NCBI GenBank assembly: GCA_951406725.2
Contig: OX597839.1
Coordinates: 15,934,001 to 15,998,000, forward strand
DNA length: 64,000 nucleotides
Direction of reading: 5' to 3'
Origin: Octopus vulgaris
Lineage: Eukaryota
A program made the translations under genes and the position numbers. Below the pieces are notes generated by a model. That model worked only from the letters and a program-made list of their open reading frames with translations. It searched no databases and was not told the origin of the DNA. Below, piece after piece: positions 44,189-59,742 of the stretch (positions are counted from its first letter, which is position 1; every line of letters begins with the position of its first letter).

Positions 44189-44991
44189 TGATTACAAGTG
44201 TTTTATTTTTCAATAGGAATCACAAAGATTTACATGTTCGATAGACATGTAAGGAATTTCCTATTAGAGAAATCATCAGACGGAGAAAGAGAATATTTTT
44301 TAATAATATAATGATACAATATTATTTAATAGTATAATGATATAATATTATTATAGTATTAGGAAAAATTTCTCTTTTTGGCAATTTCTCTCATAAGAAA
44401 CTCCTTATATGTCTATCTAACTTGTAAATCTTTGTGATCCCTGTTAGAAAATGAAACATGTGTAATGGTGAATAAATAATACCTAACAATTTCCATTTTT
44501 CCTTTTTTGATTATTCAACAACTCTGCAAATAATGTTTACATATATATATATGTATGTATGTGTGTGTGTATATATATATATACAGTTAATCCAAACATG
44601 AAAATACAAAGAGAAAACACAACAACGCGAGGACGTGGAACAAGTATAGTGTTATTGGACGCTCAGAAAAGGAAAGAAAGGAGGGTTTAACGTTTCAAGC
44701 AGAGCTCTTCATCAGAAACATAGGAAAAGGAAAGATCCAAGGAAGGGAAGATAGAGGGAAAAAAAAATCGCCAACGGTACACATGCAGTCACACACACAC
44801 ACACACATATATATATGTGTGTGTGTGTGTATAAATGGACTGCTGAAGTCTACACGTTTTTTTCATTCCCTTTCTATTTATTTCCTCTTACTTCTTTCTG
44901 TCGAAGAAGCGTAGGCTCCATTTTCCCCAAGTGTCAAACTAATACACTTGCTTGTTGTTCCTACACCTGTCTTTTGTTTTTCTATAAATTT

Positions 44992-45098
<107 letters not shown>

Positions 45099-45149
45099 CT
45101 ATATATATATATATAAACTATATATATATATAAACTATATATATATATA

Positions 45150-45199
<50 letters not shown>

Positions 45200-45346
45200 T
45201 ATCGCCATACTAATATGGCATTCTTATAAAAATAAGAAAAAAGCTGTCCGCTTATTAGCTCCATGAGGCCATCGCCTTAAGTTAGCTATTTGATACACAA
45301 ACTGTATCCATATAACCTTCGAACAAGGGAGATCAGTCGCTCCACA

Positions 45347-45417
45347 CTACTTGACCGGCAGCTACAGACGCGTTTCGGGGTATTGCCCCTTTTCAATGCA
45401 GCGTAGCCAGCCAGTAG
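45347..45417 (-). ncRNA. Type I hammerhead ribozyme, copy 1
   Basis: Minus RNA: GCUGCA-UUGAAAA-GGGG-CAAUA-CCCC-GAAA-CGCG-UC^UGUAGC, with extended stem I UGGCUGGC/GCCGGUCA and CUAC/GUAG. Predicted cut between 45367 and 45366. Confidence 0.8.
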
Positions 45418-45708
45418 GTGTCGCTTCTGGCAATCTCTGTTCGATGGTTTTATTTACCTAGTTTCGGTGGAATACATCCACTTGTTTTCAATAATAGAAA
45501 TATTAAAATTACTAAGTCTCTCTAAAAGAGAACAGCAGCAGCGTTCCCGGAAAATAATAGTTATCGCCATACTAATATGGCATTCTTATAAAAATAAGAA
45601 AAAAGCTGTCCGCTTATTAGCTCCATGAGGCCATCGCCTTAAGTTAGCTATTTGATACACAAACTGTATCCATATAACCTTCGAACAAGGGAGGTCAGTC
45701 GCTCCACA

Positions 45709-45779
45709 CTACTTGACCGGCAGCTACAGACGCGTTTCGGGGTATTGCCCCTTTTCAATGCAGCGTAGCCAGCCAGTAG
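45709..45779 (-). ncRNA. Type I hammerhead ribozyme, copy 2
   Basis: Identical to copy 1. Predicted cut between 45729 and 45728. Confidence 0.8.
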
Positions 45780-46362
45780 GTGTCGCTTCTGACAATCTCT
45801 GTTCGATGGTTTTATTTACCTAGTTTCGGTGGAATACATCCACTTGTTTTCAATAATAGAAATATTAAAATTACTAAGTCTCTCTAAAAGAGAACAGCGG
45901 CAGCGTTCCCGGAAAATAATAGTTATCGCCATACTAATATGGCATTCTTATAAAAATAAGAACAAAGCTGTCCGCTTATTAGCTCCATGAGGCCATCGCC
46001 TTAAGTTAGCTATTTGATACACAAACTGTATCCATATAACCTTCGAACATTAGAATCCTTATTGGATAAAAAGAAAAATTGTTTTCCCCAAATAACAGAC
46101 TTAAAAAATGAATTTGCTTCATACAATTCAGGAAGTTATTTTTATTCGCGAAATGTAAAATAAGTGAAAAATAAACTTCCTAGTAATACACTTATTCCAC
46201 AGTTTACACCGATTTCAACAACATACGGGTGATAAATCATTTAACAAGTTGGTAAGCAGGGATGAGCAAAATGATTATGTAACATCTATATATATATACA
46301 TATATATATCGACATATCTACGTATTTATCTATCTATCCATCACTCTGTCTCTTTATATACA

Positions 46363-57234: not shown

Positions 57235-59742
57235 TGGGCAGGAAAAACTGACAGGGTTGGAGGCGTGGGTATACGTCTCGCTGAAAAACTGGTAGATAAG
57301 GTACTTGAGGTAATCAGAGTAAGTGACAGAATACTTAAGATTAGAATAGTGCTTCATCATAGATTAGCAACCATTATATCGGCCTATGCCCCTCAGCCAG
57401 GGCTACCCGATTGACAGAAAGACAGTTTCTATGACACCCTACTGCAGACCACCTCATTGACGAATGACAGGGACCTTCTCTTTGTAGCTGGTGACTTCAA
57501 TGGGCATGTTGGACGACATGCTGGGGGCTTCCATGGCGTACATGGAGGCTACGGTTATGGTTCCCGCAACGAGGAGGGAACCAGGCTGCTGGAGTTCTGC
57601 GATGCGAATAGTCTTAAGGTTTGCAACACTAACTTCAGGAAACCGACAAGCCACTTGGTCATCTACCGATCGGGCCGGCATACTAGCCAAATCGACTACA
57701 TCCTTGCCAGAAAAAGGGAAAGATGGCTGCTTATAAATGCCAAAACCTTCCCAGGCGAAGAATGTATCCCACAACATAGACTGGTAGTTAGTGACTTTAG
57801 GATCAGGACTAAGAGGACGACTAGAAGACGACCAACATGGAGAAGAAGGGTCTGGAAGCTTAAAGACCCTGCGAATGGACAGAGATTTAGAGACATGTTA
57901 CTTGAAGCCTTTGACGAAATAGAAGGGGGTATAGCTACACATGGGGTAGAAGACAACTGGACGCTTCGGAGGGACAACCTGCTGAAAGCCACTGACCAGA
58001 TCTGTGGCTGGTGCAAAGTCCCCTCAAGACCCAAAATAACGTGGTGGTGGAACAATACTGTTGACAGGGCTATTAGACAAAAGAAACAGGCTTGGAAGGA
58101 CTGGAAGAACGGTGGTAGCAGGGAAGTGTATCAGACTGCCATAAGGGAAGCTAGGAGGCAGGTGTATTTAGCCAGAGGGGAAGCAGATAAGAAAAAATTT
58201 GCCAATGTCCTGTGCCGTGAGGATGAAAGACTTGAGGTATTTCGTGTTGCAAGACAGTGTGTGAGAGAGAATCATGACGTGGTAGGAGAAAAATGTGTTC
58301 GCAAGGATGACGGTTCACTTGCGCTAAATGAGGATACAAAGAGAGAGGTATGGAGAAGCCACTATGAAAGGTTGCTGAATGAGGAAAATGAATGGGATAA
58401 AGAGAGTCTGCCGAATGTTGACCCAACAGAGGGACCAGCAATCCGAGTTGAGAGTTCTGTGGTAGTTAAGGCAATTACAAGCATGAAAACAGGGAAAGCC
58501 CCAGGCCCATCAGGAATTACTGCAGAGATGCTCAAAATATCTGGTAGTGTCGGCTATAGCCTAGTCACCCGTATAGTTAACCAGGTGATACACGAAGGAG
58601 TCATTCCCAATGACTGGTGTAGCAGCATAATAGTCTGCTACAAAGGTAAAGGTGACGGCCTAGATACAAATAACTACAGGGGTATCAAGCTGCTGGATCA
58701 GGTAATGAAGGTTACGGAGAGGGTTATAGTCCAACTAATTAGAGAGAGAGTTAGCTTAGATCAGATGCAGTTTGGGTTCGTGCCAGGGAAAAGTACTACT
58801 GATGCTATATTCCTGGTAAGACAGCTGCAGGAAAAATACCTAGCCAAAGATAAGCCCGTGTACCTGGCTTTTGTTGTCATGGAGAAAGCCTTCGACAGGG
58901 TCCCCCGATCCCTTATCTGGTGGTCAATGAGGAAACTAGGGATAGATGAATGGTTAGTGAGAGCTGTGCGAGCCATGTACAGAGATGCTGCTAGTAAGGT
59001 AAGGGTTGGCAATGAGTACAGTGAAGAATTCAGGGTAGAGGTTGGGGTCCACCAAGGTTCAGTCCTCAGTCTCCTCCTATTTATCATAGTCCTCCAGGCA
59101 ATAACGGAGGAATTCAAGACAGGATGCCCCTGGGAGCTCCTCTATGCTGATGACCTTGCTCTAATTGCTGAGTCTCTATCAGAACTGGAGGAGAAGTTTC
59201 AGGTGTGGAAGCAAGGATTAGAATCGAAGGGCCTTAGAATCAACCTAGCCAAAACCAAAGTCCTAATAAGTAGGAAGGTAGACCAATCACAAACGCCTTC
59301 AGGTAGATGGCCCTGCTCGATCTGTAAAAAAGGTGTAGGTAGAAACTCTATAAGATGCACCAAGTGTAAGCTATGGACACATAAGAGGTGCAGCAATGTC
59401 AAAGGAAGGCTAACTAGGAAAATAGTTTTTGTCTGTGGCAGATGCTCAGGAGCAATAAACACTGGAAATGTGCAGAGACCAACTTCCACCACGTTCCAGG
59501 GTTGTGGTATGCAAGAGAGACGTTTGCGCTGGTATGGTCATGTGACGAGAATGGCTGAAGATAGTTGTGTGCAAAAGTGCCACACCCTAGCAGTTGAGGG
59601 AACCTGTGGAAGAGGTAGACCCAGGAAAACCTGGGACGAGGTGGTGAAGTACGACCTTCGCACTTTAGGTCTCACCAAGGAAATGACCAGAGACCGAGAC
59701 CTATGGAAGTATGCTGTGCGTGAGAAGACCCGGCAAGACTAG
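57235..59742 (+). pseudogene. APE endonuclease-reverse transcriptase ORF, inactivated
   Basis: APE motifs SAYAPQ, GDFNGH, QIDY, QHRLV. RT motifs KAPGPSGI, NYRGIKLL, QFGF, GVHQGS, YADD (59143-59154). In-frame stop at 57412-57414, FVVMEKAFD instead of FVD, thumb segment deleted. Confidence 0.92.

Follow-up and report, generated by a model that had tools for sequence, protein, structure and literature searches.

The window analysed here, a 64,000-nucleotide stretch of the Octopus vulgaris genome, contains a short tandem repeat in which a hammerhead ribozyme had been recognized in each full unit, and this locus raises the question of what kind of element the repeat is, which enzyme moves it, and from which form of RNA it is copied. 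TRF run on the window reports a period of 362, 2.4 copies and 99% matches at positions 45189–46049, in full agreement with the original prediction. The first two units differ at 3 of 362 bases, and the third piece, of 137 bp, differs from the second unit at a single base; the unit also proved devoid of any substantial ORF, as claimed, the longest stop-free stretch in the six frames being 73 codons. No TSD was seen by eye around this copy. The array is a single young copy of a dispersed family of non-coding hammerhead repeats (Table 1). Elsewhere in the window, there is a second, unrelated hammerhead core of the C3-G8 variety within a short repeat, approximately 500 bp from the array (44680–44720, minus strand), probably another end derived from a Penelope-like element (PLE), as well as two ORFs judged from their translations only, a 507-codon C2H2 zinc-finger-like one (22298–20778, minus strand) and a 775-codon LINE-like one (57415–59739, plus strand).

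Table 1 Features of the array in the window. Unit positions q1–q362 are numbered from 45189 and again from 45551.
Feature	Positions	Strand	Basis
Whole insertion, 2.38 head-to-tail units of the 362-bp hammerhead repeat	45189..46049	- (sense = minus)	TRF
(TA)n tract next to q1, the short 'S' form of the sense 3' end; usual target of the family	44996..45188	.	
Boundary of the insertion on the sense 5' side, q137; it falls within the family 5'-end hotspot q125-144	46040..46049	-	
60-nt 'tail' spanning q362-q303 and bounded by the fixed 3' ends S and T; lies internally here	45491..45550	-	
Type I hammerhead, unit 1; U3-A8 core 45396-45367; predicted cut 45367/45366	45342..45420	-	
Type I hammerhead, unit 2; core 45758-45729; predicted cut 45729/45728	45704..45782	-	
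Predicted 362-nt monomer between both cuts	45367..45728	-	inferred
Predicted proximal sequence element (PSE) of snRNA type, unit 1, at -57 from q240	45472..45488	-	
Predicted PSE, unit 2, upstream of both hammerheads	45834..45850	-	
q240-q224, unit 1: predicted transcription start and, in other copies, target (TSD) of a Tx1-like LINE; empty here	45412..45428	-	
Same predicted start and LINE target, unit 2; empty here	45774..45790	-	

On the minus strand, each full unit comprises, in this order, stem I (GCUGCA/UGUAGC), the core UUGAAAA, stem II (GGGG-CAAUA-CCCC), GAAA, C-GC-G and GUC, in line with the type I hammerhead originally proposed. Past a bulge, stem I gains about 15 more pairs, rather than the 12 or so previously counted, and with C17 at 45729 and 45367, the predicted cuts coincide with the bounds that had been given for the monomer, 45728 to 45367. 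Folded over 86 nt, the hammerhead has a z-score of −3.0, and over 79 nt, one of −4.1. The helix sizes are canonical by the standard of PMC4209133, in which the typical metazoan hammerhead has 6 bp in helix I, 4 bp in helix II and a short palindrome as helix III, and works as a dimer. Two features had gone unremarked at first, the core variant and the shortness of stem III. The core is U3-A8, not C3-G8, and U3-A8 is known from the hammerheads of Schistosoma PLEs (PMC4209133). Given that stem III consists of only 2 bp with a 2-nt loop and forms the palindrome ACGCGU, the predicted activity probably requires a dimer. A search of Rfam yielded no hammerhead match at E ≤ 1. Among the 163 hammerheads in the fetched loci, the third pair of stem I is G-U in 118, G-C in 27 and A-U in 17, the first pair of stem II is G-C or A-U, and the 6-mer of stem III is palindromic in 152, with the loops GC, AU or UA; these tallies count copies, not independent events. 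Pairing in the hammerhead is maintained by compensatory changes between subfamilies. Another hammerhead-like string at q272–302 was rejected as a ribozyme because stem I is missing, the string is disrupted in a sister subfamily, and its position overlaps with that of the PSE.

The search of the genome (2.8 Gb, 227 contigs) identified 784 exact copies of a 35-nt core (0 in the control) and 1,881 copies of a looser core (1 in the control), spread over many contigs with unlike flanks, such that the repeat is indeed a dispersed family rather than a single-locus occurrence or an artefact. Sister subfamilies are approximately 75–88% identical, and their diagnostic motifs occur 299, 114 and 6 times. 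We analysed 105 loci, namely, the 26 best-scoring ones (30 minus 4 overlapping), 40 picked from the core position lists and 39 more that formed a second set; the arrays range from dimers to multimers of up to 10 units, and a PSE is followed by at least two hammerheads in 31 of the 105 loci. As non-LTR retrozymes, we considered tandem units of about 150–450 bp without an ORF, LTR, PBS or PPT; the 362-bp unit is of this kind, and, as far as sequence goes, the family appears to be a non-LTR retrozyme in every respect. We regard the repeat as a novel representative of the non-LTR retrozymes, probably a non-autonomous partner of PLEs, and an ordinary one within the described class. No description of this particular family was found among the papers searched, but the novelty implied at first was overrated because non-LTR retrozymes of 350–390 bp have already been described from mussel (PMC7229834).

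Sense 3' ends fall at q1–11 (S) or q302–312 (T, that is, S plus a 60-nt tail) in 184 of 200 arms (109/119 in the first set and 75/81 in the second), and 155 arms (91/119 and 64/81, respectively) adjoin TA alternation. The 3' ends are accordingly fixed at two sites 60 nt apart and only the 5' ends vary, so that the variable end points that had been expected exist on one side only. Inverted arms are 5'-truncated, with the tail on one arm only. S is paired with T in 72 of the 83 inverted junctions (39/47 and 33/36); of the others, 10 show a non-standard end on one side, a single one, part of a complex insertion, is S/S, and none is T/T, such that the one-site-per-arm rule holds in 72 of the 73 classifiable junctions. 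Neither poly(A) nor a LINE-type 3' end was found at the ends of the repeat. Because (TA)n targets, inverted arms and the one-sided tail (PMC3846280, PMC8557442) are known marks of PLEs, we conclude that the 362-bp repeat was very probably moved by a PLE-type enzyme. Of the proposed mobilization in trans by a PLE or LINE RT, the trans and PLE parts stand, and the LINE part is largely refuted by the S/T junction pattern. The strict pairing of S with T suggests one RT start site per strand; for a PLE, PMC11167929 shows the tail to be flanked by a pair of internal start sites of the RT and predicts that the protein acts as a dimer and cuts both strands.

To characterize the potential promoter, we selected 10 promoters by eye among 50 U1/U2 loci of the same genome and built a PSE matrix from them. 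The best of the 724 unit positions lies at −57 from q240, the offset in the U1/U2 genes being −56 to −60, and scores 12.2, within the leave-one-out range of 10.2–18.1; among 2,000 shuffles, 42 reached this score anywhere and none in a fixed 6-nt window. The unit is thus predicted to carry an snRNA-type promoter with the start at q240. In the second unit of the window copy, the PSE is upstream of both hammerheads, which could allow this copy to produce a monomer using a promoter of its own. A promoter located upstream would be lost from the primary transcript unless the RNA exceeds one unit or is circular, which might be the reason for the tandem form. The 5' ends are not piled up at q240 (3/167, with 3.2 expected). 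Two other candidates were discarded: the 5'-end hotspot around q140 lost its support as a transcription start once the PSE indicated q240, and putative Pol III A and B boxes in the unit were unconvincing by eye.

With moderate confidence, we favour the explanation that the hammerhead repeat is an animal retrozyme, a non-autonomous element for which a Penelope-like RT/endonuclease serves in trans as the copying enzyme, in many cases probably with circular RNA as the template. Pol II would start at q240, driven by the PSE; the dimer-assisted hammerhead would cut free the 362-nt monomer, which would be ligated into a circle; the PLE protein would nick (TA)n on both strands, with the RT beginning internally at S and T; and copying round the circle would restore the external promoter ahead of the hammerhead and yield multimers. 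The features on which this scheme builds and that can be read from the sequences are the dispersal, the (TA)n targets, the inverted arms, the presence of S and T one per arm, the hammerhead pairing and the PSE-like motif.

The form of the template is the point on which the strongest alternative differs. We consider it unlikely, but worthy of serious attention, that the same non-autonomous PLE partner is copied from linear, uncleaved multimeric transcripts, with the hammerhead being slow or dispensable and long arrays arising via template jumping or local tandem gain. The U3-A8 core and the 2-bp stem III predict weak activity; in PMC11167929, a PLE is reported to have inserted without hammerhead cleavage, and of nine predicted retrozyme dimers from Xenopus, one was cleaved in vitro and eight were not (bioRxiv 10.64898/2026.07.22.740005). 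Furthermore, the q125–144 hotspot, which accounts for 41 of 167 5' ends including that of the window copy at q137, could mark a processed 5' end; this hotspot, stronger than the one at the cut site, is not accounted for by a circle. It is located 35–53 nt beyond the cut site, close to a conserved CCTGTTCGAAGG-like motif, and is found in several subfamilies, some of its junctions using a TTCGAA palindrome. On a linear template, however, daughters cannot exceed the length of the parent, yet homogeneous arrays of 5–10 units occur, in particular L072, where 5 private variants are common to all 5 units, and L110, with about 10 near-identical units; the lack of a 5'-end pile-up at q240 and the compensatory changes that keep the hammerhead paired across subfamilies also argue against it.

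The comparison of units within arrays gives a mixed picture. In favour of a circle, the distance between units is 0.008 within a locus vs 0.020 between loci; against it, private variants are common to all units in only 3 of 30 multi-unit loci, 5 of the 30 mix frequent variants, and among 61 comparisons of arms 14 were discordant. Array homogeneity is compatible with a circle, but with other explanations too. The 5' ends at the cut site (q169–178), 10 of 102 in the first set (scan p ~0.08), were not replicated as a cluster in the same preset window of the second set (3/65). None of the sequencing runs that contain the stretch is recorded as RNA; of 14 that we guessed to be so, 4 have contigs covering the unit, and a contig of 392 nt (the unit plus 30) fits a tandem and a circle equally well. 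The fractional copy number, which had been taken to fit the copying of a circle, is explained by internal RT starts and 5' truncation and by itself implies no circle.

A second alternative, which we deem improbable, is that the units are remnants of pLTRs, solo or in tandem, left by an autonomous PLE outside our sample. Their footprint is identical to that of PLE ends, 150 of the 6,136 GIY-YIG candidates were scored, and in two loci (L076 and L133) the unit is joined directly to PLE ORF pieces. Nevertheless, there is no recurrent PLE ORF beside the unit in the 105 loci (79 with flanks of about 3.5 kb and 26 with short flanks), which upholds the original separation of the repeat from pLTRs. PLE ORF fragments are present within about 3.5 kb in 7 of the 79 loci and nowhere in the window, and one of the first 30 loci has such a fragment within 1.5 kb; the 7 belong to unlike families, five of them are parted from the unit by (TA)n or at least 1.8 kb, and the two direct joins involve different PLE pieces with microhomology. 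These two joins are consistent with insertion of neighbours accompanied by a deletion, or with template switching, in which case they might point to the partner enzyme; the joined pieces (L076:3097 and L133:3753) belong to a GC-richer family. At its boundary, the unit passes from q1 to q362 of another unit rather than into an ORF, neither the main unit nor subfamily 2 showed homology to PLE pLTRs, and the search turned up no autonomous PLE whose pLTR is homologous to the unit. In short, the 362-bp unit does not look like a pLTR.

For the trans-acting enzyme of the favoured scheme, the same genome offers candidates, namely, young PLE ORFs of 781 aa that combine RT and GIY-YIG with a CxxC linker; these PLEs end in (TA)n, invert and carry the tail on one arm (L065, L067), and the unit has no detectable homology to the pLTR of this family. 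In one such PLE (L061:406-4087), a long ORF lies upstream in a different frame, the hammerhead is of the minimal type with U3-A8, and the tail measures 36 nt; an optional ORF1 with a frameshift is depicted for PLEs in PMC8557442 (fig. 1).

Mobilization by a LINE, or else a satellite or assembly artefact, is the least credible reading and very improbable: an intact APE-RT LINE, Tx1-like, does lie within the unit at 16 loci, but it has its own TSD inside pre-existing units, the ends of the repeat are not of the LINE type, copies reside on many contigs with unlike flanks, and the S/T junction pattern largely refutes all these variants.

The LINE is instead a later guest in the units, as follows from the position of its TSD (16–17 bp) inside pre-existing units of several unlike haplotypes, including 5'-truncated copies (L243). 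It is young and 5.36 kb long, with a zinc-knuckle ORF1 and an APE-RT-zinc finger ORF2, both intact in 7 of 16 full copies. All 16 exact matches of its 5' end are at q224, and 20 of the 30 3' ends that we examined, namely, the 19 closest plus a single other, are at q240 or in the duplicated target; relatives of this LINE adjoin the +1 positions of U1 (L216) and U2 (L301). By anatomy and target habit, the guest appears to be Tx1-like; no Tx1 LINE targeting a retrozyme was found among the papers searched. The guest is represented in L180–L189 and L236–L244 (for example, G000:C2:73044600-73068730), with five copies in tandem on C2, and also accounts for a 3-kb flank shared by L092 and L166, for which 5' transduction had been considered. 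A 69-nt fragment of the LINE 3' end is present in the inverted arm of L242, and on C14 (L188), a 5'-truncated LINE is joined to an inverted arm; these might be composites of LINE and unit re-mobilized by the PLE.

Tentatively, and with less confidence than we place in the favoured scheme, one could envisage a three-tier stack of parasites in which a circle copied for more than one round keeps its external promoter, a dimeric Penelope protein uses two fixed sites of the same RNA to prime both strands, strictly one per strand, and a Tx1-type LINE has switched from the U1/U2 starts to the start of the repeat. If so, the hammerheads flanking the LINE could trim its transcript.

The family touches on two open questions, how animal retrozymes move and how the inverted, one-tailed Penelope insertions originate, and provides a compact test system, with a young, ORF-free substrate of 362 nt, mapped S and T RT start sites, a predicted promoter and an intact candidate PLE enzyme in the same genome, such that circular vs linear templates and twin priming become directly testable in vitro.

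Among the known systems, the closest are the metazoan non-LTR retrozymes of mussel (350–390 nt), coral and axolotl, which, as described in PMC7229834, share with the octopus family short, low-GC, non-coding tandem units with one type I hammerhead each, arrays from dimers to multimers, co-existence with PLEs, and a hammerhead with a 6-bp helix I, a 4-bp helix II and a short palindromic helix III. The octopus unit differs in the U3-A8 core and in that its circle is only predicted; conversely, its junctions directly bear the PLE tail and inversion footprint, whereas PMC7229834 only proposes PLEs as candidate mobilizers. The Xenopus retrozymes (bioRxiv 10.64898/2026.07.22.740005) are likewise non-autonomous PLE partners with tandem hammerhead units; that preprint, which by its text samples no mollusc, presents them as pLTR derivatives linked to PLEs via co-occurrence and pLTR homology, whereas for the octopus unit, no pLTR homology was found and the link consists of insertion scars. 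With the EN+ PLEs Poseidon_Ac (PMC11167929), Adineta Pen2a (PMC3846280) and Neptune (PMC8557442), the family shares partial tandems, an inverted 5'-truncated arm, a one-arm tail, AT-rich or (TA)n targets and a hammerhead, but the octopus unit has no ORF, its tail is 60 nt long vs their 30–40, and its hammerhead has canonical helices, in contrast to their min-HHR. Newt satellite 2, likewise a tandem repeat with a hammerhead, is reported to use a Pol II promoter of the snRNA type (cited in PMC2220036); in our case, such a promoter is predicted from sequence only. Finally, the guest resembles the target-specific LINEs of the Tx1 clade, Keno (in U2), Tx1L (in Tx1D) and Tx1-Mar, as outlined in PMC4494074, in being an APE-RT LINE that inserts, and re-inserts in tandem, at one site in a multicopy RNA gene or mobile element; unlike these, it targets the predicted +1 of a hammerhead repeat, with its relatives adjoining the +1 of U1 and U2.
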